Of a stretch of DNA of 64,000 nt, positions 3,708 through 41,905 are shown one piece after another. The notes under the pieces are model-generated. The model made no database searches. It worked only from the letters and a program-made list of their open reading frames with translations, and had not been told where the DNA came from. Source of the stretch: Naegleria gruberi. Lineage: Eukaryota. Both the position numbers and the translations under genes were made by a program. How positions within the stretch are numbered: the first letter of the stretch is position 1; every line of letters begins with the position of its first letter. The stretch lies in NCBI GenBank assembly GCA_000004985.1, contig GG738865.1; one strand, written 5' to 3'.

Positions 3708-3757
3708 NNNNNNNNNNNNNNNNNNNNNNNNNNNNNNNNNNNNNNNNNNNNNNNNNN
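3708..3757. other. assembly gap (50 N) immediately preceding the internal telomere-repeat block
   Basis: n run. Confidence 0.99.
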
Positions 3758-4072
3758 CCCAAACCCAAACCCAAACCCAAACCCAAACCCAAACCCAAAC
3801 CCAAACCCAAACCCAAACCCAAACCCAAACCCAAACCCAAACCCAAACCCAAACCCAAACCCAACCCCAACCCAAACCCAAACCCAAACCCAAACCCAAA
3901 CCCAAACCCAAACCCAAACCCAAACCCAAACCCAAACCCAAACCCAAACCCAAACCCAAACCCAAACCCAAACCCAAACCCAAACCCAAACCCAAACCCA
4001 AACCCAAACCCAAACCCAAACCCAAACCCAAACCCAAACCCAAACCCAAACCCAAACCCAAACCCAAACCCA
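3758..4072. repeat. interstitial (CCCAAA)n telomere-like array, about 52 units, same orientation as the terminal array
   Basis: Perfect hexamer tandem with one CCCCAACCCAA variant near 3862. It ends cccacgactaaggtcagacccaac. ORFs 3685..4119, 3693..4094 and 3697..4110 are translations of the repeat (QT/PK, GL, GF dipeptide runs). Confidence 0.9.
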
Positions 4073-4833
4073 CGACTAAGGTCAGACCCAACATTTTGAC
4101 TTTTATTCATCTTAATTAATTATCTCAATAAATACTCATTATAAATCAATATATTATATATCAATATACTCCAAATTGAATATATAATCATAATATAACA
4201 TAATATTACATCGTTATAATGACTTATTTAAGTTAATTTCATATAATAGATTAGACAATTTTAATATCAATGAAAACATTTCAAAATCAATTCAAATCAA
4301 TATATCACATTATAAATCATGTTTATAACAATACATATCAATTTCAAATACTTTGGTATCATTTCAGGATATTTACTATTCAACTTGTCAACGGACCCAT
4401 TCTAACATTGAAGATAGAAATCTGTTCCACTTCAATTCACTTCCAATACATCTGTACATGATAATTAAATATATTAATATCATTTTGACATTCATCCATA
4501 TCATACATGGTACATGGCTGATCCACTTGATACCTACAGGGTTGTGACAATGACATCTACTATACAGATCATCATGAAATTGATACAGCACCTTACCAAT
4601 GATGAATAAACACCACTGTATCAGTTTCATGACAATTTGAAATCATTCAACATGTCAGGAGTGTAATCATGAGAATAATGAATGTCAAGATAATGAAATC
4701 ATATTAATTTTAAAATCTTTCAATTATAATATCATTTATAGATCAATTAATCATGGTATTTCAATAATTGGTATTGAATTTCATATCAATTCATTCAAAC
4801 CTTAATGACCTAACCTTAGATGACCAAGTCAAT

Positions 4834-5412
4834 NNNNNNNNNNNNNNNNNNNNNNNNNNNNNNNNNNNNNNNNNNNNNNNNNNNNNNNNNNNNNNNNNNN
4901 NNNNNNNNNNNNNNNNNNNNNNNNNNNNNNNNNNNNNNNNNNNNNNNNNNNNNNNNNNNNNNNNNNNNNNNNNNNNNNNNNNNNNNNNNNNNNNNNNNNN
5001 NNNNNNNNNNNNNNNNNNNNNNNNNNNNNNNNNNNNNNNNNNNNNNNNNNNNNNNNNNNNNNNNNNNNNNNNNNNNNNNNNNNNNNNNNNNNNNNNNNNN
5101 NNNNNNNNNNNNNNNNNNNNNNNNNNNNNNNNNNNNNNNNNNNNNNNNNNNNNNNNNNNNNNNNNNNNNNNNNNNNNNNNNNNNNNNNNNNNNNNNNNNN
5201 NNNNNNNNNNNNNNNNNNNNNNNNNNNNNNNNNNNNNNNNNNNNNNNNNNNNNNNNNNNNNNNNNNNNNNNNNNNNNNNNNNNNNNNNNNNNNNNNNNNN
5301 NNNNNNNNNNNNNNNNNNNNNNNNNNNNNNNNNNNNNNNNNNNNNNNNNNNNNNNNNNNNNNNNNNNNNNNNNNNNNNNNNNNNNNNNNNNNNNNNNNNN
5401 NNNNNNNNNNNN
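4834..5412. other. assembly gap (579 N)
   Basis: n run. ORFs 4768..5421, 4820..5425 and 4829..5593 are N translations. Confidence 0.99.
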
Positions 5413-5417
5413 AAGAT

Positions 5418-6287
5418 TTGAATAGAGGATATATCATTCTGACTGAATATGCCAATGATATGATTATTGGAGCCAATTTGAATATTACGGGAGTTGGTTT
5501 TGACAGAATTCCAGTAAGAAATGTAACAGTTCGAAATGCTGGTTCACTAATGAACAAGTATCTATCAATGAATGTATCAGAGGGCGATATCACACAAGTT
5601 ACAGGAGAAGATGGGATTTCCTACATGATTTCCAGTTCATCCTATTCAATAGACAATTTGAAATGGAGAATGACAATAGTGTGTGAGGAGAGTGAAATTA
5701 TGGAAAATGTCATTCTTAGCAGTTATGTCATTTTGGGTGTTGCTATTGGAGTCACCTTAATTGGAATGATGTTCAGTATCTTGATAGGATATGCCATAAC
5801 GAAACCTCTTCGAATCATTCAATCCGATTTTGCAAAGATTGAAGTAATGAGTTTGGAAGATATTGAGAGACACTCTTCATTCTTTACCGAAATTAGAAAT
5901 ATCTATGTGAGCTTGTACTTGACAGTCAAGTGGTTACAGGAATTTAGAGCTTTCCTTCCAGAGAATATTCTTAATCAATTGGAAAGCAATGATCCTCAGA
6001 AACCTAAAGTAATTACAACACCTTCAGATCAACATGTCATTGAGAATTCAGCCAAACAACATTACCTAAAAAAGGAGAACTCATCATACTTGGAAGAGAA
6101 ATCCTCCCATACTTCATCATTCTTCCTTGGTGTTGATACCAATACCAATAACAAGATGAATCTCTTCAAAATTGGTTTGTCAACCCTTAACAGCTCTGTA
6201 ATGTATATCAAGATACAGNNNNNNNNNNNNNNNNNNNNNNNNNNNNNNNNNNNNNNNNNNNNNNNNNNNCTGTGTAGATTATTATAA
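5418..6287 (+). pseudogene. truncated paralogue of the Cache/TM/cyclase-homology receptor gene at 23427-26065; 5' end lost in the gap, no cyclase-homology domain downstream
   Basis: The protein GYIILTEYANDMIIGANL...NLKWRMTIV...ILGVAIGVTLIGMMFSILIGYAITKPL...WLQEFRAFLPENILNQLES aligns residue-for-residue with QKGFVIISEYGNDYIIGSSL...NLKWRMTLF...ILGVSIAVAILGILVSILVGWVVTSPF...WLSEIRAFIPDSILNQLDE of the 23427..25106 ORF. The frame opens directly at the gap edge. It closes shortly after a second 51-N gap (6219-6269). No coding potential is seen from 6290 to 7190. Confidence 0.55.
6219..6269. other. assembly gap (51 N)
   Basis: n run. Confidence 0.99.
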
Positions 6288-7197
6288 TCGTAATACCTTA
6301 CAATACCAATAAAACTCAATAGAAGAGTTAATTCTTCTCATTTTCAAATAGATTATTCAATATAGAACACATCTAGATAGTTTCCAGATCATAAAAGTCA
6401 AGCTACTATATATGGTCTTTGATTAAATTTAAAAATAGACTGCCGTTGATTACTGGAATCTTGATTCAAATTTTGTTTTTGAAGGTATGATGATCAAACT
6501 ATTGATTGAAAATCAAACCGATTATTTAATATTGATCATTGAATTGGTAAATAATCACTCTCTTTATAATGCTACATATTGAAGATTGATGCAAATCAAC
6601 GTGATTCAATCTACAAAGGTTGGTAGTTGCACCACTTCGTGGCGAAACTACCCATCCACAATCAATCAACATGTGATTCACTTCCATTCAACTCAATTTG
6701 ACCGTTATAATCAATAAATCAATGAAATGTTCCTTTATTAGCAATACCTATTCAATCTAATGAGTAGATTCACGTCCCAAACATTTGACTTCTCAAAGTC
6801 CATAATTCAAAAGTTGATACTGACCTGACCTTTATATATCTATCAATATAAGAAATGAAAACATCAAATTTACATCATTAATAGATTATAAGAAATATAA
6901 TCAATGATATAAATCTTCACTAAGTAATCTCTTAAATAGCCCAAATAAATCAACTCTGAATCCTAAACTCGTCCAAACACTGAACAGAACTAGATGGTTG
7001 AACAGCTAGTCATTGTTTGCTGTTTTATGGTGTATTCGAGATTTTGAAATCTTGAGAAATATGGATTTCTGATGGTTATTTCTAAACTTTGTTTATTGAC
7101 TTTTATGGAAAGGAATAAAATTGTCATCATGTGATAATTATGACTATCATGACAACAAGAGAATATACACATTTAAACAAAGTCTTTGTTGACATAT

Positions 7198-8016
7198 TTA
7201 TGAATAAAATACAAAAATTGCAAAGAATACCAATGCAATACTAAGGACAATGCTCAAAATATCCATTCCATCGAGAGAATTGAAGAAATTCTTCTTTGGT
7301 GGTGAGGATTCAATTTCAATGTTTGCTTTTTCTGTTTCAATATTTTCTAGTTGACTATCAGTTTCAACATTTTCCAGTGAATTTGGTATGTCAAAACTAA
7401 ATGCAGCGGTTTGAGCTTGAGGAGATCGAGGAACTTGGTTAGTAGATCCAAAACTAAAAGGATCAGAATTTGATAAATTACATGAATTCCCCATCATTTC
7501 ATTAAACATGTTTGTCATGTATTCCCCTTGTTGCTGTCGTAGGAAAGTTTTCAACAGTTCTTCTTGTAATTTCTGTTGTTGCTCCAGCTCACTTGTAGAT
7601 CCAAAACTAAATCCACTTGTTGCCTTTGGTAGTTGAGAGAATTCAGAACCTAAACTAAATCCATTTTGTACTGATTGAGTTGGTGGAGGAGGTAGAAAAT
7701 TACATCCACCAATCTGATTCGATTGTTGTTGCACTAATCCACCACATGTTGGTGGTGAAAAAGCACCAAAAGTAAATCCACCAAAAGAAGGTTGAGGAAC
7801 TTGGTTTGTATTAAATTGACCAAAATTATTTGGGAAATTGTTTGTTGATGAATTAATTTCTGTTGGAAAGAAAGGATTGGCAGATTGAGTGGAGGCAGAT
7901 CCAACATTAAATGCAGAAAAACCTTGGTCAACTGGACCAAACGGACCTAATTGACCTAAATTATTTGCACCTAAATTGCCCAGAACCTTTTCACGTTCTC
8001 TTTTCAAATCAATCAT
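7198..8016 (-). CDS. FG/FxFG-repeat, Q/N-rich protein with a C-terminal transmembrane tail anchor
   Basis: 272-aa ORF. Motifs FGGFTFGAF, GFSFGST and FSFGST. The C terminus ILSIVLSIALVFFAIFVFYS is hydrophobic and sits at the very end of the protein. Confidence 0.5.
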   Translation of the reverse strand: MIDLKREREKVLGNLGANNLGQLGPFGPVDQGFSAFNVGSASTQSANPFFPTEINSSTNNFPNNFGQFNTNQVPQPSFGGFTFGAFSPPTCGGLVQQQSNQIGGCNFLPPPPTQSVQNGFSLGSEFSQLPKATSGFSFGSTSELEQQQKLQEELLKTFLRQQQGEYMTNMFNEMMGNSCNLSNSDPFSFGSTNQVPRSPQAQTAAFSFDIPNSLENVETDSQLENIETEKANIEIESSPPKKNFFNSLDGMDILSIVLSIALVFFAIFVFYS

Positions 8017-8257
8017 TTTTTTTTAATTGTAAAAAAATAAACCACTTCAACAATCAAATGTTTAATTTACAAGGTTCACCTTAAAACTAAAAATAGAATA
8101 AAGAATCTATTATTCTATTACTTTCAAGAGAATTCATTACCTACCTATTGATGATAGAAATGAACATTATCATGATTTAATGATGTTCTTCATTATCAAA
8201 AATAGTAGGATTTAAACGTGGCAAATATCAAATATTAGAAATCCACAATATTCACAT

Positions 8258-11200
8258 TTAAAATAATTTTGCCAATACTGATAGCTCATTAATAATATCA
8301 TTAAACGAAGGTCTTTCCAGTGGTGCCTGATTCCAACATTTCACCATTAAATTTTGATATCTTTCCACTAGTGAAATAATCCCACTTCCATCCAATTGAT
8401 TACTATCCTTTCTGATATTGAAAATTTGTGAATCCTGATTGATAATCCATTCATTAATTTCCTCTCTGGACTTTAATATTATTGGACGATTTCCCAGGGA
8501 GACAAGATAAGGAATTCGATAAGGTGAAGCATCTTTTTGAACTTCCTTAGTAAGAGGATTTTCAATGAACGGAACAATACAGTATAGTAATTCATACATA
8601 ATGATTGAAAAACTGTAAACATCTAATTTTGTAGCAATTTTGAGTGATTTCTTTTCGTCTTTTGGAACAATTGAATCGTCAACTGATTCTGGAGCTAGAT
8701 ACATCAAAGTACCCACGTTCATTGTCATGGTTGACTGAACAGAATTTCTTACCAATCTCACCAATCCAAAATCACATACTTTTCCTTGAAAATGATCATT
8801 CAAAAGAATATTTCCAGGTTTCTATAAAAGGATTAATATTAATCCAATTATGTTAAAATAAAAAAAACGTACCAAATCTCTGTGAATAATTCCAGGTTTC
8901 ATATTATGCAAATAATCCATTCCATTTGCAACATCCAACAGAATGGAAATTCTCATAGAAAATTGTAATCTGAGAGTTCCATTCTTACATTGATAAATTA
9001 CTTGATCCAAACTTCCTTTTGTTAAATATTCAGTGACCATGTACTTGTTTTGTCTAGTAATGGCCACACCATAGAATTGGACAATGTTTAAATGGTGGAG
9101 TCTACTTAAAATAGCTGCTTCCTTGTCGAATTCATCAACTTCATTGGTCATTTCTAATGATTTTATGGATTTGATAGCAACTTTGATATTTCTCCATTTA
9201 CCCAAATAGACAACTAAAATGTTTGAAAACTAAAAATCAACAAGTGACTTACCTCCATTTCCTCCTTCTCCAATCTTTTTCTCTATATGTAAATCCTCAA
9301 TTGGAATGATAAAGCTTTGATCCTCATTATCCAATAATGGAATAAATAAATCCCCATTACCTGCACTAGCAGATGTCGATGCGCTCTTCTTAGAAGCTTT
9401 TGAATGTTGTTTTGTTTCCTCTTCATCATCACTCATATCAAAGATAACCTTCTTATCATTTAGTTTTCTTTCCAATTCCGCTTCTGCTCTATCCTTTTCC
9501 TTCAATCTTCTTAAACTATTGACAACTTTCCTCAAGATGAAATAGATCAGTAATGAAATTAGTAAGCCCATGACAAAAGCCAATATTGTAACTGGCACCA
9601 CAATTGATACGATAAGCCATGTATAATCCTCAGGGTTTTTCACACAAGCGTACAAATAATTCACATCTTTAAATTCAATAATGGTTCCTGGAACTTTTTC
9701 AATGTGATATCCTTTATCACAATTTGCCATGTAAGCTGTGTAATAGAACTTCTGGACGAGTATATCGGCCTTGAAATACATGGATACTTCCACTAGAGAA
9801 GAATTTTCACCATTTGAATTAGTAATAATACTCTGTGGAATATTGACAGCAGAAAATACGTCATTTGCAATTAGATATGGAATTACCTTAATGGTAAAGT
9901 TTCCAATCTCTGTAATGTTGAATACAACCTTTGAGTGCATAGACCCGACACGTATTCTCTCATAATAGAGTGGAATTAGATTTCCAATATTGTCTGTACC
10001 TTTCACATTAAAGGTAAATTCTGATCCAGGTTTAAGAATGTTAGCTGACTTGTTGGTGTCTGATATAATTTCCAATTCACTCAATGCATATGAAAAATTA
10101 TTTGGTATATTGGTTCCAATTATTTCATTTCCAATAATTAGATTTCCAATAAATTCATTACTTGGATCTACACTTTCTGGACCTAAAATATATACAGCAG
10201 CACCCATAAACAATGCTTGATTGTTAATAAACTTGGTATTGATAAAACGTCCATAGCCAACCAAGTACCGTGGAATGTAAGCTATTGCTCCACCTTTTTT
10301 GGCATAATTATTAATAAATGTTGCTGATTTCCATATATAATCATCTACTCTGTTAACTGAGGCATCAGTACATAGGAAAATAGCACCACCCATATTGGAA
10401 TAGTTATCCCGACCTATTACTCTATTGCTATCGAATAGAGATCCAGAATATTGGAATTGAATTACTAATGAACCAATATAGAGTGCACCACCTGAAATCA
10501 GTGCAATATTATTTCTAAAAGTACATGAAATAATATTAAGAGAGTAGGCTAAATCTATAAATATGGCACCTCCTGCACCACCCACTGAGGTATTATTTTC
10601 GAATTGACAATTAGATATTATTCCAATAGCATTAAGGTAACTTCTAGAAAATATTGGAACGAAAATGGCTCCTCCACTTTCCCTTGCCTCGTTACCAAAG
10701 AATGAAGACTTGTCAATTACCAACTTGAATATTCTACTAATGTAAAGACAAGATCCATTGATCCCTCTGTTGTTTAGAAATTGAGAATTTGTAATTGTGA
10801 CTTCATAGCTTTGTTCAATGATTACAAGATTTTTCAGATCTGGATAATAAGAGTTGCTATTGTTTGTCAACGTAATTTGATCAAGTTTCACTGAAGAAAA
10901 TCCTTGAATTGAAGCAAATGACTCTCCGTCATAGCCATGTGTATTTAAAATCTCAATACTGGTACCAAAATCAGCCATAATTGCAGAATCTCCACTATAT
11001 TGTGTAAATTCATTAGTATTGAATGTAATTTTAACAATATTTGTAATTCCAATCTTTGAATTGATTAATAAACATCCATAAACTTGCAACTCTTTAGATG
11101 AAGCAAGAAATAGTTGTGTTTCTTCAAATTTGGTTTGAAAAATTGTAATCTTGTCCATTTCAGAAAATAACATTCCACTTCCCACACCATTTACAATACT

Positions 11201-31947: not shown

Positions 31948-32999
31948 ATGGAAGAAAAATTAGCAGCCAATCCATCAGAGAGTACCGAGGCAAGCAAGAG
32001 TAAACTTCCTTCTCAAATATCATCACGTCCAACAGAGTTTGATATCAAGGCTCCGATTGAATATGATAAAATTTCAATGCCACCTTGTTTGAAGGAGGAA
32101 CAACATAAAGCCTTTTTAGAAATGGTTAGATTAACAAGGGAATATGAGGAAACAAATGGTTTGACACCTTATCAGAAATATTACATTTATTATGCTGATG
32201 CTGATCATCATTGTTTAGTTAGATATTTACGTGCTAGAGATTTTGATGTGCATAAGGCTTTTAACTTGTTGAAACATTCATTGGAATGGATTGAATCATA
32301 CAAGCCACACATGATTAATGCAACAAAAATCGACCATGAAGGGTCTACAGGAAAGATGTTTGTTCATGGACATGATAAATTCGGAAGACCTGTTGTCTAT
32401 CTTGTTCCTGCAAGAGAGAATACCTATGATAATGTTGCTAATATTGAATTGTTGGTTTATACGTTGTGGACTGCTGTTGATAGAATGGATGATGGTCATA
32501 CCCAAATGGTTTGTTTCATTTGTTTTTAACTCATTACCAAATTATTTAATTATGAATAATAATTCATTTGGAATAATGTTAATAGGTTTGGATTTGTGAT
32601 TATTCGGGATATTCAATGAAGAATGCACCAAGTTTATCTGTCTGTAAACAAACAGTTGAAATTTTGAGTAGTCATTTCCCTGAAAGATTGGGAGTTGCCT
32701 TAATTATGAATCCACCAAGAGTTTTCAGTTGGTTCTGGAAGCTCATTAGTCCATTTATTCCAGCTGCCACAAAGGAAAAGATTAAATTCTGTAACACTTC
32801 TAATAAGGAAGAAATGATGAAATTTATGGAACCTTACTTTACACCTGATCTTGTTTTAAAAGATTTTGGCGGTGAAAATGAATTTGAATTTGCAAAGGTC
32901 TGGAAACAAGATAAGGTTCTAGACAATACTCGTCTGAAAAAGATTAATGATTTTGGTTTGGCTGATGTTTCTTCACTTTTTGCCAATGTTGAACCATAA
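31948..32999 (+). CDS. Sec14-like / CRAL-TRIO lipid-transfer protein, 2 exons (intron 32509-32585)
   Basis: CRAL-TRIO N-terminal motif HHCLVRYLRARDFDVHKAFNLLKHSLEW. GRPVVYL follows. The GTTTGT...TTAATAG intron joins ..GHTQM to VWICDYSGYSMKNAPSLS. The C-terminal domain has HFPERLGVALIMNPPRVFSWFWKLISPFI. Confidence 0.75.
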
Positions 33000-33194
33000 A
33001 CTCTGAATATGTTTTGTTTCATATTATTTATCCATCTATTATTACTATTATATTACTGCATCTGTTTTGGTCTAGAAATTAGGAGCGTTGAGATTTTTTC
33101 CCGCCAATAAAAAAACAGTTTTATTATTCAAAAAAAAATCCTTAATGACCATCTTCCCTCATCATCCCATCACTTCCTCTGCACAACAATCATC

Positions 33195-36100
33195 ATGATG
33201 AAATCGATTAGTAACAATAAATCCAAAAGGGAACAGCAACAACGCTCAATGAGCAAATCTTTATCATCGAGTACAATATCCACCCTCCATCAACAACCAG
33301 AAAAAACAACACCCAAAAGAAGAAAATCACAAAATACAAGTCAAGCTCCTGTGCTTGTGGCAGCTTCTCTTGATGATTTTAGTCTTGCTTCTTCAACTCT
33401 TCAAAAAAATGTTCAAGACTCTATTCTAACCACAACTCCATCAACAGTACCAACACCTCTGGTTCAAGTTTCTTTATTTTCCATTCTGAATAAGAGTGGA
33501 TCTTCGGCGCCAAAATTGCCAACAATTTTCAATGATGATGAGGATGAGCAAGAGGTAGAGGAGAGTGAGAGCATAATTTCCTTCCGAAACAATGAAGAAA
33601 TTAGTCAACAACCATCCCGACCAGAATTATCAGCCGCTGAAAACACTTCCCTCTCCGAGCAACAATATTCCTCTCCTCAAATAATGTTCAAAGAATTGAC
33701 GAGGGAGAAATTATTCTCTCAAAAAACATCCCCCAAAAGACCTCTCGTAATTAAATCTTGTGCACATCCAAAGGATAGTACATTTTCCACAGTCAATTTA
33801 ATGTTGGAAAAGGTTTTAAAAATTATTGGAAACTCAAAGAAAGGAACCTTTCTCTTTTTAACAAGATCCAATATGGACTCTCGTATTATCAAGGATATCC
33901 TACTCCAACAAGTTCCTGACCAGATGAAGGATATTAAAGTCATGTCATTTCACACCTTCTCCAGTACCATCCTTAAAAAGGCAGGAAAACCATATGGAAA
34001 TTCTGGATTTAAGATCATTTCCAATGAGGATACTAGATTTTGTTTGAGTAAGGTATTGGAACATAATGATAAAACCAACTCTCTTAAGGAATTATCAATG
34101 GATGTGGAGGGTATTCAGAATTTTATTGAAGCTCTCAAACTGGAAATGAAAACTCCAGACATGCTCCTCCGCGAAATCATTTCACAACACCAAAGAGATT
34201 CAGTCAATGGAGAGAGAAGAAAGTTAATGTTGCTGCAAAATATTTACAGTGAATATGAAAATCTGAAAATGCAAAGTAAGAGTTTGGATTTTACAGATTT
34301 ATTATTGCAATGTCATACTCTCCTGACAAATCCATCATCTGAAACTCTCTCCAACATTGGGCTATCGAATAGATCTGATCTTTATATTCTAATTGATGAT
34401 TTTGAATTGTTAGATCTTCCTCAACATACTCTTTGTAAAGATATTATTTATTTGATGAGTCAAACTCAACAGACATCCATCAAGAGTGTATTGCTAGGAA
34501 CTCAAAAATTGGATTGTGATAATTTGGCTAATTTAAAGCAAACTTTTATGGATCCATTTAGTTTTGATATTTTCAATTTTGATTCTATTGAAGATCAAAT
34601 GAAAGAGACAAAGATCGCAGCCCATCATATACCAATTGAATCAACAAATATATTTGATGATCTCAAATCAGGAGAGTTAGTTTGGAGGTACATTTCTATT
34701 GAAGGGAAAATATTGGATGAAAAAACTTTGCATACAGTCGTTTCAAGATTTGCCGTTAAGGGATTTGAAAAGAATGAAAATGAAACCATCAGTGACATTC
34801 CAACAGAGACAATTCAAATAAGTCCAGAGACTAGTGAGCTTATCTTCCAAAGTGACTCCCTTTCTACCCCAATAGGTGCTGCTGACTATCTGACTGCTCC
34901 ACAAAAAGTATGCAATATTTATTTGGAGTTTTCCTCGAAGAAGGAACAAATGGAATGGTTGGCATCTATTGAAAGAGGAATCATGCTTCAACAAAAGCCA
35001 CTCAAGATGCCACCTTGTTTCAAGGACAAGTGTCAAAAGTTAGATGTAACCAAAGATCAAAAAACAACATTCCAACCCAAGATTAGAATCAATAGGGAAA
35101 AGATTAGAGATATGGTCTATTACAGGCACTCAATATCTGAACAATTCCTCATGAAACTAGAACATGTCATCAACATAATCGAGCAACATATTAACAAGAG
35201 TGCCAAAGCAGCAATTGGAGACGATGTTCCTCTCAAGAATTTAGTAATGAGTAGAATATTCAAGCAACTTGGACAAGAAACACCTGACCAGATAATTATT
35301 GTGGATTTGAAATTGGAGGATTTTTGTCAAGAATGGGAAAAGGATTGGAAGAATTCTTTATTATGGGGTGAAAAGGTAACAGAGCCTTCAACCTCTGAAA
35401 AACTCATGAAATCCATTGCCGAGACTTTATCAAAACTTGGTCAAGAATGTGAAGAAACAACAACACCGATAGTATTGGAAGAAAGTCTTGAAGAGAAAAT
35501 CGAACAAACATCTATGATTGAGGAGCAACCAAAAGAAGAATTTAACAACATGGAAGAGGAGGAAGACCAGATTATCAGTGATATTGTCTCACCAAATTTT
35601 AAAACTCCAAACAATGTCTCCTCTCTTGATGCTCTCATTTCTTCTGCCAACACTGAAAATCCAATGACCATTGAGCAATTGGCTTCGTCAGTTATTGATG
35701 AGGAAATTTATGTTTCTCCTGACAGACAACCATCAAGGGATAGTACTCCACCAAAATCCACTGAAAAAACTCCAAATCAAACAACTATTACTCTTGAACC
35801 AATAAGTACAAACTACTCGAATTATGATGCTAGATCCATTCTGGATCATTTCAGAAAGACACTTTCCACCCAAAAAATCGAACCAACAAAAACACTAGTC
35901 CCCCAAGACAATAAGAAACAACTTATAGAAATTGATTACGAGATGAATAGACTCCTGAATGCCACTCAAGAACACGTCATGCTCGACGACTCTGCCTATG
36001 CCTTTGATTCATCGAAACCACAACTCGACATTACATTCAATAATCAATCGGCATTGAACATGACTGATATTTCTCAAAAACCACTCTTTACACCAACCAA

Positions 36101-36764
36101 GCCATCCTCAAACTTGGCCAAACTTAGAGAGCTAACCTCTCCAAACTCTCCAAGCACTGTATTTTCTAGTATTGTTTCCAAATCTCTTTCCAAAAAGTTA
36201 ACTTCTCCACCTCCTAAAACAAGTCCTTCAATAACCCCTTCGAGAGCTGAACGAAGAAATGCCAAACTTGTTCAAGTCAAATCTGGTTCACCAAGTAAGA
36301 TTATTCAAGTAATTAAAACTCTCAAAACTGGTGTGACCATATATAAACACTCATCGAGTGGAACCTCTAAGAAGAAACTTGTCCACCTATTCCTCTCTGC
36401 AGACGAGAACTTTGTTTGCTATGTGAAACCAGAGTCGAGAAATATTGTCCCTCTCTATGAAATTAAATCCAAATTCCCAGTATCTTCGATCAGATATCTC
36501 CAAAAGGGAGAACTTGTTAAGAAGAGAAGACTATTGGAAATTAAGGGTGGTATTGCAAGTACCTTATTAGGTATCAAGAAGGAGGAAATGAAAGTCGATT
36601 CAACTGTTCTCTTTTCCTTCTGTCTCCCAGAGAGGTATTTAGATTTTGAAGCCAAATCAATAATTGAGTGTCAAACATGGTTTGACATGTGGGAATACTT
36701 TGTAGCAGCTATAGCTAAAAATCAAGCCGAAAAGCAGGTTGAAGAACCAAGTGTTTCTCAATAA
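33195..36764 (+). CDS. large (1189 aa) protein with a degenerate UvrD/Rep-like helicase core and two PH-like domains
   Basis: IIGNSKKGTFLFLTRS lies where Walker A GxGKT is expected. VMSFHTFSSTILKK...FKIISNEDTRFCLSKVL resembles vGTFHslc.riLr...f.IlD..dq..ll. SLDFTDLLLQCHTLL...DLYILIDDFELLD resembles vDFaeLLl.a..Ll...ILVDEFQDtn (motif II with E replaced). PH-like folds occur at ~480-590 and at the C terminus (..LVHLFLSADENFVCYVKPES...ECQTWFDMWEYFVAAI). Confidence 0.5.
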   Translation: MMKSISNNKSKREQQQRSMSKSLSSSTISTLHQQPEKTTPKRRKSQNTSQAPVLVAASLDDFSLASSTLQKNVQDSILTTTPSTVPTPLVQVSLFSILNKSGSSAPKLPTIFNDDEDEQEVEESESIISFRNNEEISQQPSRPELSAAENTSLSEQQYSSPQIMFKELTREKLFSQKTSPKRPLVIKSCAHPKDSTFSTVNLMLEKVLKIIGNSKKGTFLFLTRSNMDSRIIKDILLQQVPDQMKDIKVMSFHTFSSTILKKAGKPYGNSGFKIISNEDTRFCLSKVLEHNDKTNSLKELSMDVEGIQNFIEALKLEMKTPDMLLREIISQHQRDSVNGERRKLMLLQNIYSEYENLKMQSKSLDFTDLLLQCHTLLTNPSSETLSNIGLSNRSDLYILIDDFELLDLPQHTLCKDIIYLMSQTQQTSIKSVLLGTQKLDCDNLANLKQTFMDPFSFDIFNFDSIEDQMKETKIAAHHIPIESTNIFDDLKSGELVWRYISIEGKILDEKTLHTVVSRFAVKGFEKNENETISDIPTETIQISPETSELIFQSDSLSTPIGAADYLTAPQKVCNIYLEFSSKKEQMEWLASIERGIMLQQKPLKMPPCFKDKCQKLDVTKDQKTTFQPKIRINREKIRDMVYYRHSISEQFLMKLEHVINIIEQHINKSAKAAIGDDVPLKNLVMSRIFKQLGQETPDQIIIVDLKLEDFCQEWEKDWKNSLLWGEKVTEPSTSEKLMKSIAETLSKLGQECEETTTPIVLEESLEEKIEQTSMIEEQPKEEFNNMEEEEDQIISDIVSPNFKTPNNVSSLDALISSANTENPMTIEQLASSVIDEEIYVSPDRQPSRDSTPPKSTEKTPNQTTITLEPISTNYSNYDARSILDHFRKTLSTQKIEPTKTLVPQDNKKQLIEIDYEMNRLLNATQEHVMLDDSAYAFDSSKPQLDITFNNQSALNMTDISQKPLFTPTKPSSNLAKLRELTSPNSPSTVFSSIVSKSLSKKLTSPPPKTSPSITPSRAERRNAKLVQVKSGSPSKIIQVIKTLKTGVTIYKHSSSGTSKKKLVHLFLSADENFVCYVKPESRNIVPLYEIKSKFPVSSIRYLQKGELVKKRRLLEIKGGIASTLLGIKKEEMKVDSTVLFSFCLPERYLDFEAKSIIECQTWFDMWEYFVAAIAKNQAEKQVEEPSVSQ

Positions 36765-36932: not shown

Positions 36933-37727
36933 ATGTACAACCAAAGTGAAACGGCAATCTTTAACAACGAAGAGCAGCCACCTCAAGTAGAAGATGCCTA
37001 TGCCGGATATGATGATGTTGCCACAGGAACAACAGAAGCACCTGGATTGTCTGCCGAAATTGTCTATCATCCTTACTTTCAATTGGCAACATTTTGCTTA
37101 ATAATGGGAGTTATTGGTGTTGTTGCTGTTCCAATCTCTGGTTGGTTTATTGGTGATGGATTATATCGTTCCTATAGCGGACCATCACATTTATTAGATG
37201 TTGTTGTTTGCTTATTGGTTGGATTATTCTTAATGGCCCTTACTTTGATGATTGTTGGATTTATTTTGGCTGTTTTGGCTACCCAATGGAATTACATTCA
37301 TGAAGGTACATCAAAGGAACAGTATGGAGCAGGTGAAGGAATGACATCAACCCCAGTATACGATCAAAAGACTATTGTTCAAAAGAGGAGAACATTTATC
37401 ATTTCAGTAATCTTTACCGTTCCATACTCTATTATTGGTTTTTATTATTGTATTGCTGGATTAGTTGCTGTTATTTCCACAGCCTCATCAAATTTCCCAA
37501 CATTTACTAACTTTGTCGATTACACTGGATTTGGTTTGGGATTTTTAATGCTCTATTTTGGTTGTGCTTTGATTTCGCTTACAGTCATGATCTCAGTAGG
37601 TCTTTTCAGAAGTTGGAAACAAGCTGAAACCTCTGATCCAGGTTGTTCACATCCTATTCTTCAAAAGATTGGAGACTTTTTGAAGAGATATGTTTGCTGT
37701 GTTAATGGTCAAGTTGCCGAAGCTTAA
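36933..37727 (+). CDS. four-TM membrane protein, family unknown
   Basis: 264 aa with four long hydrophobic helices (e.g. FQLATFCLIMGVIGVVAVPISGWFIG, VVVCLLVGLFLMALTLMIVGFILAVLA). Confidence 0.5.
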   Translation: MYNQSETAIFNNEEQPPQVEDAYAGYDDVATGTTEAPGLSAEIVYHPYFQLATFCLIMGVIGVVAVPISGWFIGDGLYRSYSGPSHLLDVVVCLLVGLFLMALTLMIVGFILAVLATQWNYIHEGTSKEQYGAGEGMTSTPVYDQKTIVQKRRTFIISVIFTVPYSIIGFYYCIAGLVAVISTASSNFPTFTNFVDYTGFGLGFLMLYFGCALISLTVMISVGLFRSWKQAETSDPGCSHPILQKIGDFLKRYVCCVNGQVAEA

Positions 37728-37747: not shown

Positions 37748-40700
37748 TTACTTTTTTTTATTGGAAATTGAGTTGGTGGTTGGTAAGAGTGATGTAGGTG
37801 GCTGAACCTTATCTCCTAGATTTCGTTTCTTTTCAGCTTTAATCAGTCTTTGATTTTCTGCTGTTAAGGTTTCTAAATTGTCTTTCAGTTGTTGTAGCTC
37901 GGACTTGGTTTGTTCTTGCAATCGTAATAGATTGGATTTTTCGTATTCTAGTTGTTTGAGGTGATTGTTAAGAAGGGTATTGTTTTCCTCAAGCTTTCGT
38001 CCATATTCTTCGACTTGCATGAGTTGGGTCTTTTGTTTTTCAAAGTCCACTTCAATCTTACGATATTTAGAAATATCCAATTGAGTTTTTCTAAGCTCCT
38101 TTTCATATTTTGATATGGTTTCCTCCTTACTCTTGTTAACTTGCATGATTTGTTGGGCAAGCTCAACGTTCTTTTGTTTGAGTCTCAAAATTTCAGATCT
38201 TAATTGTTTCCACAAGTCAACCGTGGTATTTGGTGAGAGTGGAGTGGTTTGAATAATTGCTGAGAATTTACCATTTCTGTGAGTTGGAGTTTTAGAAGCC
38301 ATCTCAGGAGATCCTTCAACACTTGAAGGAGGACCTCCACCCTTGGTCAATTGTTCTAAAAGTCTTTCCACTTCTTGTTGCATCTTTTCATTAGATTGTC
38401 TATTTTCATCGAATTGGCGTTTCAGGTCATAGTTTTCCCTTCTCAGATCGTTCAATTCTCTGCTCTCGACAGCAGAGTTTTGAGATTTTGTCATCAAACT
38501 CTTCTCAAGTGCTTCCTTCTCCTTATTTAACCTTTCGATATTAAGAGCATTATTGGAAAGACTTTCTTGGAGAGAGTTGAGCACTTGGTTAGCATTTTGC
38601 ATTTCTCTATCGTGTTCCAATTGCTGTTTTGCTAAAAGACTTTGCAAGTTTGAAATCAAGTCGTTCTTTTCTTGTAATTCATTGAATGATGAGGAAATTT
38701 GTTCTTGGAAGTGAGTGATTTCCGTCTCGGCTCTCTCCTTGTAAATATTGTAAGTTTCCATGAATCTGTCCAATTCCTCCTTTGATTTTTGAATTTCCCT
38801 TTCCTTTTCAGAAATAGTGTTTTCCTTCTTTTCTATATTCTTCTCTAGTTGATCAATTTGGTTTAAGAGTTCTTGATTATCTCCTTGAGATTTGAGGTCT
38901 TCCCTAATTGTATCAATTGTAAGCTTATAATCCTCAACTTGAATTTTTAGAACTAGTATTTCATTATTGAGTGACTCTACTTCTTGATTTGACTCATCAA
39001 GAAGTGCCTTATATCTTTCACAGCCATCCAGTGATCTTTCCAACTTTGAATTTATCTCGTCATCCCCAGAGCTTAATTGATTTTGAAGGTCATTATTTTT
39101 TCTTTGTATTTGCTCCAAATCTTTCTCAATGGCTTTCAATTGTTCCTTTAATTTTTCATTTTCTTCATCTAGTTGTTCCAATCGAGAAGAATACTCATCA
39201 ATGGTGGAATCCTTAATGTCCAACAATGATTTCACCTCTGTATTTTCCTTCTCCAAATCTGCCATGATGGATTCCTTATTTTTGATTTCGTGAGAGTAAT
39301 TTTCTAGTAATTCCTCAAGTCTACTTCTTTCCTCATCAAATTCTTGCTTCTCAAGTTCCTTTCTTTCCTCAATTTGTTTTAGCTCTTCTTCCATTTCATT
39401 TAGACTATTCTCTAGATCTAAATTTCTTTCTTCCAACCTTTTGATTTGTTCATTTTCGGAATCGCTCTTTCCATTTAATGTATCTTTCAAAATATCAATA
39501 TCTCTTCCTAATTGCGTAATCTCCTTGCATTTAATATTGAACTGTTTCTCCTTATCTTGTAGTTTTTCTTCCACACCATTCAACTGCTTTTGTTGCTGCA
39601 CGAGTTCAGCTCGCAAAGAATAAATCTCATCATCCTTATCCTTAACTTCATCGAGAAGAGATTCTATTTGAGCATTTTGTCCTTCCAGCTGTTCGAAAGT
39701 TGACTCTGCTGCTTCTTGCTTGGTTGAAAGGAGGTCTTCCACATTCTGCTGGGATTCTGTCAATTTTCCTTCTAAATCTTCAACAATTTCTTCCTTTTCT
39801 TCAAGCATTTTCTTCAATGCCTCCAATTCTGAATTCATCAATTTCACTTGTTGAGAGGTATTTGCAATCACATTCTTGTTATTGTTATCCTCATCGATTC
39901 TCTCTTGCAGTGTTTCCAGCAATTCCTCATACTTTTTTCGTTCAGCTTCCAAATCATCCTCTAGATTTTGTTTATGAATTGGAATTTCTTCCAAATCTTT
40001 AGTCAGTTTGGTGGATGATTCGTTTGCCTTGTTCACTTCTGCTGTCATTAGTTCAACAACAGTCCTAGCCTCGTTCAATTCCTTCTCTAAATCTGTTATT
40101 TTGTTTGTTGTTGCCTCTTGGTTCTTTGTATCTTGATTTTGAAGGGTTTCAATTTCATTCTCTAGAATCTTTCTTTCCCTTTCAAAGTCGTCGCTCTGAG
40201 TTTGCATTTCATTCTTGATTCTTTCCAGCTCCTTCTCCAACAGTTCGAGCACTTTCTTATTGGCATCAATTCCATAGGAAATGTTCTGAGAAATGAAATC
40301 CCTCTCCTCCACTAAAGTTTGATTTTCAGTTATGAGCTTTTCCACAGCTTCCTCTTTTTCGGCAAGCTTGTCAAGCAATTGCTGTATCTGCCCATCTCTC
40401 TCTTTTAACAATTCTTCGTCGACAAGTGGTTTCTCCTCTTCGAATATTGAGCATTGAACAGGTGTTTCTGCAATTGTTTTTTGTTCTGTTTCTGTGTTGG
40501 TGCTATTTTCAGAAGTATTTGAAACAGGGATATAGGTTTGGGTTGGAGCTTCATTGGTGCTGGTTTGTACTTGTGTGCTCGCTTCTTTGACCTCCAAGTC
40601 TGTATTTGTACTCTCATCATTGGTAAGATTTAAAAGGTTATGATCTGCTTGCACGGATTCTTCTTTAGATTGTGGAACATCCTCTTCTTTAGAATCTGCC

Positions 40701-41905
40701 ACTGGATGACTTGAAGAAAAACTTGAATTTAATGGAGGTATAGGAGGTACACAATACACCAACTCAACAATTTTATCGTTCAAGCCATTGATTTTTTCCT
40801 CAAACGATATCTTTTCATTTTCAAATTGTTGTTTTTCCTCCTCCAGATTTGTGATTGTTTCTTCTTTTGATTTCAACTCATTTTCCAATTCCCTAAGTTT
40901 CTCTTTGTTTTCCTCCTCTATAATTGATAATTTTTCCTCCTTTGATTTTAATTCGCTCTCCATTTCCTTAAGCTTTTCCTTCAACTGAGAACATTTTTCG
41001 ACAATGTTGCAAATCTGCTCCTCTTCCTTTTCCTCTTCCTCACTAATATGTACATTTTCATCGAACATAAAATCTTTTGAAGGTAATTCCTGTAGAGATT
41101 CATTAGTGTATGATTCCCCATGGTTGGATGGAGATGTGAGTTTGTTTGGTGTAATGTTAGAAGTGAAATTCAAGAGTTTTGTCAACTCTTCTTCATCTGA
41201 AAAATCTCCATCATTAATATTTGGGATATCGATATGAATAGGAGTTTGTGAAATAGAGGAAGAACCTAGAATGAAATCCAATGGTTTTGACCTCCTTTCA
41301 GAATGATAGAAAAATGGACTGTTTGAGTTTGTTACTCGATTATTTGATGGTTCTGTTGTTGGTGATACATTTCTCCTGATTACTATTTTAGTTGAGCCAT
41401 GAAGATTGGTAGGAGTTTTGTTAGACTTGTTCAATTCACTCTCCAAGGTCACATTTCCATTAGAGTCTGTTGGGAGGGAAATATAAGGATGCAGATATCC
41501 ACAACCACAACGAGCATGAGAAACTTTGGTTCCTCTTGGAAAGAATCTTTTGAAAATGTTTTTAACCTCAGTTTCCTGTAATTCATCTAGGGAAATAGAT
41601 CCATCCTTTTGATTCATTTGTGATGATGATTGTTGATGATGGTTTGGTTCCTTCTTCGATTGAATGATGGTAGAAAATGTATTTTCATTATTCCGAGATA
41701 ATACAATTGGTTTAGATTTGGATTTGTTGCATAGAGAGTGTTTGATATTCTCTGTTGTTATATTATGTAAATGTAAATGTTTTGATGAGGGTGCAAATGT
41801 TCTATTACTATTTAATGAACCAATATTAAGTGGAGGTATTCTCACTTCATGCTCCGTTGATATTTTGTGTTTTTTCAATTCCAAATATTCCTCAGATGAA
41901 GCCAT
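37748..41905 (-). CDS. long coiled-coil protein (1385 aa), myosin-tail/golgin-like, no motor domain
   Basis: About 900 residues of E/K/L/Q-rich heptad-like sequence (LKEKLKEMESELKSKEEKLSIIEEENKEKLRELENELKSKEE...). N-terminal S/N-rich region. Single ORF. Confidence 0.6.
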   Translation of the reverse strand: MASSEEYLELKKHKISTEHEVRIPPLNIGSLNSNRTFAPSSKHLHLHNITTENIKHSLCNKSKSKPIVLSRNNENTFSTIIQSKKEPNHHQQSSSQMNQKDGSISLDELQETEVKNIFKRFFPRGTKVSHARCGCGYLHPYISLPTDSNGNVTLESELNKSNKTPTNLHGSTKIVIRRNVSPTTEPSNNRVTNSNSPFFYHSERRSKPLDFILGSSSISQTPIHIDIPNINDGDFSDEEELTKLLNFTSNITPNKLTSPSNHGESYTNESLQELPSKDFMFDENVHISEEEEKEEEQICNIVEKCSQLKEKLKEMESELKSKEEKLSIIEEENKEKLRELENELKSKEETITNLEEEKQQFENEKISFEEKINGLNDKIVELVYCVPPIPPLNSSFSSSHPVADSKEEDVPQSKEESVQADHNLLNLTNDESTNTDLEVKEASTQVQTSTNEAPTQTYIPVSNTSENSTNTETEQKTIAETPVQCSIFEEEKPLVDEELLKERDGQIQQLLDKLAEKEEAVEKLITENQTLVEERDFISQNISYGIDANKKVLELLEKELERIKNEMQTQSDDFERERKILENEIETLQNQDTKNQEATTNKITDLEKELNEARTVVELMTAEVNKANESSTKLTKDLEEIPIHKQNLEDDLEAERKKYEELLETLQERIDEDNNNKNVIANTSQQVKLMNSELEALKKMLEEKEEIVEDLEGKLTESQQNVEDLLSTKQEAAESTFEQLEGQNAQIESLLDEVKDKDDEIYSLRAELVQQQKQLNGVEEKLQDKEKQFNIKCKEITQLGRDIDILKDTLNGKSDSENEQIKRLEERNLDLENSLNEMEEELKQIEERKELEKQEFDEERSRLEELLENYSHEIKNKESIMADLEKENTEVKSLLDIKDSTIDEYSSRLEQLDEENEKLKEQLKAIEKDLEQIQRKNNDLQNQLSSGDDEINSKLERSLDGCERYKALLDESNQEVESLNNEILVLKIQVEDYKLTIDTIREDLKSQGDNQELLNQIDQLEKNIEKKENTISEKEREIQKSKEELDRFMETYNIYKERAETEITHFQEQISSSFNELQEKNDLISNLQSLLAKQQLEHDREMQNANQVLNSLQESLSNNALNIERLNKEKEALEKSLMTKSQNSAVESRELNDLRRENYDLKRQFDENRQSNEKMQQEVERLLEQLTKGGGPPSSVEGSPEMASKTPTHRNGKFSAIIQTTPLSPNTTVDLWKQLRSEILRLKQKNVELAQQIMQVNKSKEETISKYEKELRKTQLDISKYRKIEVDFEKQKTQLMQVEEYGRKLEENNTLLNNHLKQLEYEKSNLLRLQEQTKSELQQLKDNLETLTAENQRLIKAEKKRNLGDKVQPPTSLLPTTNSISNKKK

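Follow-up and report, generated by a model that had tools for sequence, protein, structure and literature searches.

A degenerate half of a UvrD/PcrA-type helicase fused to a PH domain in Naegleria gruberi and its relatives: a candidate membrane-tethered adaptor

A 64,000-nucleotide stretch of Naegleria gruberi DNA (contig GG738865.1 of NCBI GenBank assembly GCA_000004985.1; hereafter the window) was analysed with a focus on a gene at positions 33195..36764 of its + strand, the product of which joins a helicase-like head to a C-terminal PH domain. The explanation that we favour, with a probability of roughly 55% for the package as a whole, is that this protein is a catalytically dead remnant of a UvrD/PcrA-type superfamily 1A (SF1A) helicase which has been re-used as a non-enzymatic adaptor and is tethered by its PH domain to a phosphoinositide membrane. 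That the N. gruberi protein is not an active helicase is held with great confidence; its targeting to a membrane, a prediction from the sequence, stands at slightly less than even odds when taken by itself.

The gene is a complete open reading frame (ORF) of 1189 residues plus stop, and its product is 100% identical to the "predicted protein" NAEGRDRAFT_48687 (XP_002677663.1; UniProt D2VDL3), whose parent contig is 820 kb long. The reading frame, 1189 codons in a genome with 35% G+C, runs unbroken from its first ATG at 33195, with an in-frame stop at 33108. That the fusion is an artefact of the gene model was considered and rejected, as the N. gruberi ORF is continuous. The following parts were delineated by combining a family alignment, domain profiles and an AlphaFold2 model.

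33195..33701, + strand: N-terminal extension (residues 1-169, the stretch ahead of 33702), low-complexity and N. gruberi-specific by the family alignment; the internal Met164 could be the true start
33702..34604, + strand: UvrD/PcrA-like domains 1A and 1B (residues 170-470), one RecA-like domain with a helical insertion
34656..34994, + strand: central β-rich domain and its C-terminal helix (residues 488-600) with the invariant pair E587-W588, from the AlphaFold2 model, Foldseek and weak Pfam PH matches
35094..35429, + strand: predicted helical middle segment (residues 634-745), poorly conserved and of low model confidence, from AlphaFold2 and the alignment
35430..36284, + strand: acidic, Ser/Thr/Pro-rich low-complexity linker (residues 746-1030), from sequence and alignment
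36090..36101, + strand: TPTK (residues 966-969), a [ST]PxK site inside the linker
36288..36299, + strand: SPSK (residues 1032-1035), a [ST]PxK site between the end of the linker and the PH domain
36306..36710, + strand: C-terminal PH domain of PH_12 / PLC-δ1 type (residues 1038-1172), from PF16457, the match to 1mai and conservation

The similarity of the head to UvrD and Rep is far above chance. Pfam UvrD-helicase (PF00580) matches residues 204-417 with an E-value of 5.3e-15 and 56.3 bits (cut-off 23), covering profile positions 31-235 of 271, so that the match begins just past the P-loop of the profile. The best NCBIfam model is PcrA (TIGR01073, E = 5.6e-10), at a score far under the equivalog level, and BLASTP aligns the head to an intact 738-residue helicase with 32% identity over 186 residues (E = 1e-14). 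Against the sequences in the PDB, phmmer returned nothing useful for the whole protein and a marginal PcrA match only for the trimmed head (E = 0.009). An AlphaFold2 model of residues 170-745, computed from an alignment of 18 sequences (family members and trimmed intact helicases), has a mean predicted local distance difference test (pLDDT) score of 65, rising to 80-93 over residues ~220-390, and a Foldseek search with this model retrieves PcrA (E = 6e-12), UvrD, Rep, UvrD1, AddB, AdnB and RecB.

This resemblance is confined to the first half of the motor. The superposable part amounts to ~300 residues, on helicases of 540-720 residues; the 1A domain does form in the model, and past residue ~470 the chain continues as a β-rich domain followed by helices and not as a second RecA fold. 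UvrD_C (PF13361) finds no match anywhere in the protein, even at E ≤ 10. Only domains 1A and 1B are therefore present, and the 2A/2B half with motifs IV-VI is absent. In PcrA and UvrD, 2A supplies motifs IV-VI, the arginine finger among them, and the SF1A ATP site lies between this domain and 1A.

The catalytic motifs within the remaining half were read by aligning the head with its closest relatives among intact enzymes, 15 full-length helicases which all keep AGxGSGKT, DE[FY/A]QD and GDxxQxI[YF]. The motif positions in the N. gruberi protein are as follows.

33756..33782, + strand: P-loop (Walker A) position, reading SCAHPKDST (residues 188-196) without Gly-Lys-Thr; 15-helicase alignment, PDB alignment and AlphaFold2
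33828..33848, + strand: GNSKKGT (residues 212-218), a turn that leads from helix α1 into the motif Ia strand; alignments and AlphaFold2
33852..33884, + strand: motif Ia equivalent, LFLTRSNMDSR (ILAxTFTNKAAxEM in intact helicases); alignments
33945..33959, + strand: motif Ib equivalent, SFHTF (residues 251-255), conserved; alignments
34284..34304, + strand: LDFTDLL (residues 364-370), the conserved 1B-to-1A return segment; alignments
34383..34409, + strand: motif II (Walker B) equivalent, YILIDDFEL (residues 397-405); alignments
34476..34526, + strand: motif III position, SIKSVLLGTQKLDCDNL, with GDxxQSIYxWRGA lost including its aromatic residues; 15-helicase alignment

The original prediction, made from the nucleotide sequence, had picked out the stretches SFHTF, LDFTDLL and YILIDDFEL as UvrD/Rep-like, and all three are real; in LDFTDLL, D196, F197 and D199 (trimmed-query numbering) are invariant across the 18 sequences. 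Its reading of the DEFQD box as DDFEL, in which the catalytic Glu is replaced by Asp, is borne out by the 15-helicase alignment. Its Walker A assignment, in contrast, has to be moved by about 22 residues. GNSKKGT lies ahead of motif Ia in both the alignments and the AlphaFold2 model (residue 220 of the query stands opposite residue 59 of PcrA, in motif Ia), which rules it out as the Walker A motif; the position that aligns with the P-loop reads SCAHPKDST and is modelled, at about residues 187-195, as a low-confidence loop between a strand (residues 184-189) and a helix (residues 197-212). A pattern search finds neither [AG]xxxxGK[ST] nor GK[ST] anywhere in the 1189 residues, so that no intact Walker A site elsewhere in the chain contradicts the original prediction, and its doubt about a working P-loop stands. 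Motif III, GDxxQxIYxWRGA in helicases, reads LLGTQKLDCDNL in N. gruberi and is unrecognisable. The Phe of motif Ia and the aromatic residues of motif III, which stack on single-stranded DNA in PcrA, are likewise replaced in the alignment. Without 2A and without these aromatic residues, ATP turnover and translocation are both implausible, and from what is established for SF1A enzymes neither ATP hydrolysis nor DNA translocation should be expected of the protein. Of the five features that define SF1A, it has a PF00580 score above the gathering threshold and lacks the other four, namely Walker A, motif II, motif III and the 2A/2B half. The earlier suspicion of a pseudo-helicase with doubtful ATPase activity is thus strengthened, with motifs I, II and III degenerate and half of the motor missing.

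Orthologues, which the original prediction had proposed to look for in related genomes, were found in four further genes with the same five-part order, belonging to Willaertia magna, Acrasis kona and two metagenome contigs. They came from an exhaustive HMMER search of 1.84 billion representatives that gave 19 hits, which were then traced to DNA. Word-indexed searches performed far worse: the full protein retrieved only itself and one bacterial-type helicase, a head-domain profile retrieved intact helicases only and missed the family's own members, and a C-terminal profile retrieved three short fragments only. A scan of metagenome DNA with a four-sequence alignment added one new locus (L003, on a 2.5 kb contig cut off upstream) and a duplicate of L002. 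The four orthologous genes are listed below.

JBEGDK010000017.1, 3400-6595: W. magna KAL9657591.1 (L001); the model on deposit breaks off within the PH domain, which the ORF 4838..6595 completes with 42 further codons
JAOPGA020000683.1, ~4050-7479: A. kona KAL0480687.1 (L006); the deposited 492-residue "PH domain-containing protein" is the C-terminal half only
JGI 3300062347, 5974-11186: L005, an intron-rich metagenome gene split into seven called genes, six small ones upstream and one with a 1061-residue product
JGI contig: L002, a metagenome gene cut off at the 5′ end of its contig

The gene calls on record thus cut short or split three of the four orthologues (W. magna, A. kona and L005). 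In A. kona the deposited model is without the whole helicase-like and central half; by tblastn the helicase-like region falls at 4198-5253; an ORF covers 4441..7479. Three of the L005 fragments match PF00580.

A five-way alignment shows 45% identity for the C-terminal PH domain, 26% for the head, 22% for the linker, 20% for the central domain and 14% for the helical middle. W. magna (GDRNTGKT) and, once a gt...ag intron is taken out, L005 (GEEHKGKS) have a P-loop of intact form; N. gruberi has lost it, and the A. kona sequence gives no clear reading at this position. The first two residues of motif II read DD, DD, DQ, DE and DC across the five members, the first Asp being invariant. Motif III is lost from all five, and none of them has a 2A domain. 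A P-loop kept in two members, a variable motif II and a lost motif III are what would be expected from relaxed selection on catalysis with the fold retained, and some lineages may have residual nucleotide binding. The segments conserved throughout the family (FHTF, EDTRFC, YSEYxxLKxQSxSLDFxDLL and LQYEI) are structural ones, the mark of a fold that has been preserved to bind and not to catalyse. From the architecture shared by five members and the 1189-codon ORF, we judge this to be a real gene under constraint. The family has so far been found only in heterolobosean amoebae and on two unassigned metagenome contigs.

PH domains had been proposed both at the C terminus and in a central segment, and the two proposals fare differently. 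At the C terminus a PH domain of PH_12 / PLC-δ1 type is real, convincingly so for the family and marginally for the single sequence. In the whole-protein Pfam scan this region matched only PF00169, with an E-value of 0.1; at the level of the family, PH_12 (PF16457) matches all nine sequences (best E = 3.7e-10) and PF00169 six of the nine. The closest solved chain to the family profile is the PH domain of PLC-δ1 (1mai, E = 0.0044), with which it is co-linear over the whole domain (YK-HSSSGTS-KKK against LK-VKSSSW-RRER, and the Trp of the C-terminal helix; only two segments of the PLC-δ1 sequence used are confirmed by the 1mai match). The basic β1-β2 signature K...K/R-x-K/R and the C-helix Trp are both present in alignment with PLC-δ1. 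K1051 and K1059-K1061 are invariant in the closer set, R1111-R1112 are conserved, and W1162 in the C-terminal helix is invariant. Basic β1-β2 residues are those that bind phosphoinositide head groups in PLC-δ-type PH domains. It is because the PH domain is the best-conserved segment of the protein and keeps these residues that we place the adaptor, provisionally, at a phosphoinositide membrane.

The central segment (residues 488-600) is probably PH-like, and this part of the proposal is unproven. Within the large model its first strands (residues ~490-540) have pLDDT values of 82-93, and its last strand and helix, the latter carrying E587-W588, values of 75-90. With the same model Foldseek returns DH/PH modules at E-values of 2e-4 to 6e-4. 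Pfam PH models match the domain in one of three orthologues only, and weakly (E = 0.005 and 0.018). PH domains also fill the list when a stand-alone model of the domain is searched, all with E > 0.6 and none significant. The confidence of the model arises only in context, and the central domain may accordingly pack against 1A.

From these observations we propose the following arrangement. The dead 1A/1B head and the central domain would together form a protein-binding platform, in which the central β-rich, probably PH-like domain takes the position in the chain of the missing second motor domain. The long disordered linker would join this head to the C-terminal PLC-δ-type PH domain, and the latter would anchor the protein to a phosphoinositide-rich membrane. 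Anchoring could in turn be regulated by phosphorylation of the conserved [ST]PxK sites near the PH domain, a weaker step of the proposal. TPTK and SPSK have counterparts (TPKK or MTPTK) in L001, L002, L005 and L006, and they fit the consensus of proline-directed (CDK-type) kinases. A more specific version, in which half of a PcrA-type motor has become a phosphorylation-controlled binding or sensing module, recruited to membranes of the phosphatidylinositol 4,5-bisphosphate type and with a P-loop that binds nucleotide in some species, is unlikely to hold in every part.

Several observations weigh against the membrane-adaptor explanation. What is said here of ATPase activity, DNA binding, lipid binding and localisation is in every case a prediction from sequence. 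The N. gruberi PH domain, scored alone against PH_12, reaches 26.2 bits where the cut-off is 27 (E = 1.2e-5). Modelled alone, the central domain drops to a pLDDT of 39, the region being represented by the same three family sequences as in the large model, and hhalign gives a probability of 0.6% for its relation to the C-terminal PH profile. Two orthologues have the GxxxxGK[ST] pattern, so that binding of nucleotide may have remained relevant to the family, and PH-like folds also act as protein- or histone-binding modules. A PKRRK stretch in the N-terminal extension, part of TPKRRKS at residues 39-45, resembles a nuclear localisation signal and could direct the protein to the nucleus. Finally, no orthologue surfaced from N. 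fowleri or N. lovaniensis, a result in which absence and non-coverage by the collections are indistinguishable.

Some of these points feed directly into other explanations. The protein could be a nuclear or DNA-associated adaptor, its dead head recognising DNA or a repair or replication partner in the manner of RecC and AddB and its PH-like folds binding protein or histone. We consider this improbable: the residues that would stack on single-stranded DNA are gone, the signal-like stretch lies in an extension with no counterpart in W. magna and L005, the orthologues with a readable N terminus, and the C-terminal domain matches the lipid-binding PH_12 and PLC-δ1 instead of PH-like domains such as those of TFIIH or FACT. 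The retained P-loops of W. magna and L005, together with the first Asp of motif II in all five members, would suit a nucleotide-binding switch, that is, a 1A domain acting as a non- or slowly hydrolysing nucleoside triphosphate sensor that controls what the head binds, with the N. gruberi state as a derived loss; yet 2A, which is needed to complete the SF1A ATP site, is absent from every member, four of the five are without the catalytic Glu and the P-loop of the N. gruberi protein is destroyed, all of which leaves this account with a rather small chance.

Two further explanations can be largely set aside. A horizontally acquired or duplicated helicase gene that is simply eroding, leaving an ORF without function, would agree with the degenerate catalytic motifs, with the large low-complexity share of the protein, with the missing N. 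fowleri orthologue and with the location of the gene, ~33 kb in from the telomere-type repeat that opens the window. We find it very improbable, as the 1189-codon ORF is intact, at least five divergent lineages retain the multi-domain order, with identities of 14-45% in the individual segments, and the invariant residues cluster at structural positions. An active but unorthodox helicase or ATPase has the above-threshold PF00580 match in its favour and is contradicted by the sequence, which is without P-loop, catalytic Glu, motif III and 2A/2B; an active helicase was rejected on the degenerate motifs I-III and the absent second half of the motor, and we give this last idea next to no credence. 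The membrane-tethered, non-enzymatic adaptor remains the explanation that we prefer.

As for the origin of the helicase half, every relative outside the family in the exhaustive search is a PcrA-like metagenome helicase of 596-1146 residues with intact motifs, the two named ones being DNA helicase II / PcrA, which is compatible with a bacterial source without establishing one. A literature search on heterolobosean helicases and gene transfer returned nothing relevant.

The genes that flank the helicase-PH gene in the window are unrelated, and there is no nuclease among them.

31948-32999, + strand: Sec14-like lipid-transfer gene (CRAL_TRIO_N and CRAL_TRIO), directly upstream, in two ORFs with an apparent short intron at ~32530-32615
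36933-37727, + strand: 264-residue ORF without a Pfam match; several of its stretches are hydrophobic and probably span a membrane
37748-41905, - strand: 1385-residue Glu/Lys/Leu-rich, coiled-coil-like ORF with a sub-threshold CAF1A_acidic match only

The CRAL/TRIO gene is a second lipid-related gene and adjoins the PH-domain gene; it is not syntenic in W. magna, and the W. magna locus as a whole shows no synteny with that of N. gruberi. The first part of the window has features of its own. Near-perfect arrays of one hexamer occupy 1-417, as (ACCCAA)x70, and 3758-4072, as (CCCAAA)x53, in different registers and reading TTTGGG on the other strand. They are a telomere-type repeat, so that the start of the window is probably a chromosome or scaffold end and the gene probably subtelomeric, ~33 kb in. 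The second array directly follows a 50-N gap and may be a mis-joined scaffold end. Four runs of N mark assembly gaps at 1222-2191 (970 bases), 3708-3757 (50), 4834-5412 (579) and 6219-6269 (51), and they may contribute to the very low G+C content (21-28%) of the first 6 kb.

The fusion of a single-RecA UvrD-type core to a PH domain in a eukaryote is, in the literature searched and to our knowledge, undescribed: no paper names the protein or describes a UvrD and PH architecture. The novelty claimed in the original prediction holds to this extent, with the reservation that public tables already list the individual Pfam matches, assigned by automatic annotation, for two of the orthologues. Were the membrane targeting to hold, the protein would clearly exemplify a DNA-motor fold that has taken up work unrelated to DNA, and the membrane-module reading, if true, would connect a DNA-helicase fold with membrane signalling or trafficking in a previously unrecognised heterolobosean family. 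With a P-loop that two lineages retain and N. gruberi has lost, the family shows catalytic decay in progress. A practical yield is the exposure of wrong gene models in W. magna and A. kona and of a split metagenome gene. The stakes are modest, this being one lineage-restricted and uncharacterised gene.

That inactive enzymes can find a second use as scaffolds is well established, with RecC and AddB as examples for the superfamily 1 fold, and it is against such systems that the N. gruberi protein is best placed. With UvrD, PcrA and Rep (PF00580 and PF13361) it shares homologous, superposable 1A and 1B domains, the FHTF of motif Ib, LDFxDLL and the first Asp of motif II; it differs from them in having no 2A/2B, P-loop, catalytic Glu or motif III, in its eukaryotic host and in the fused PH domain. 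Like AddB and RecC, both inactive helicase-fold subunits of bacterial end-resection machines, it would work as a dead superfamily 1 scaffold, but those proteins keep two RecA-like domains, act on DNA within a helicase-nuclease complex and carry no PH domain, whereas the N. gruberi protein has half of the core only and is not a member of their group. Srs2, FBH1 and Hmi1 are eukaryotic proteins with a UvrD-type N-terminal domain, and they are set apart by their descriptions as complete, active helicases with intact motifs. At the other end of the chain, all nine family sequences match PH_12, and the family has in common with the PLC-δ1 PH domain a basic β1-β2 hairpin and the Trp of the C-helix; it adds a basic-rich insertion of ~16 residues with an invariant RR (VKxRRQxEIK), and its PH domain is joined to a dead helicase in place of a phospholipase.

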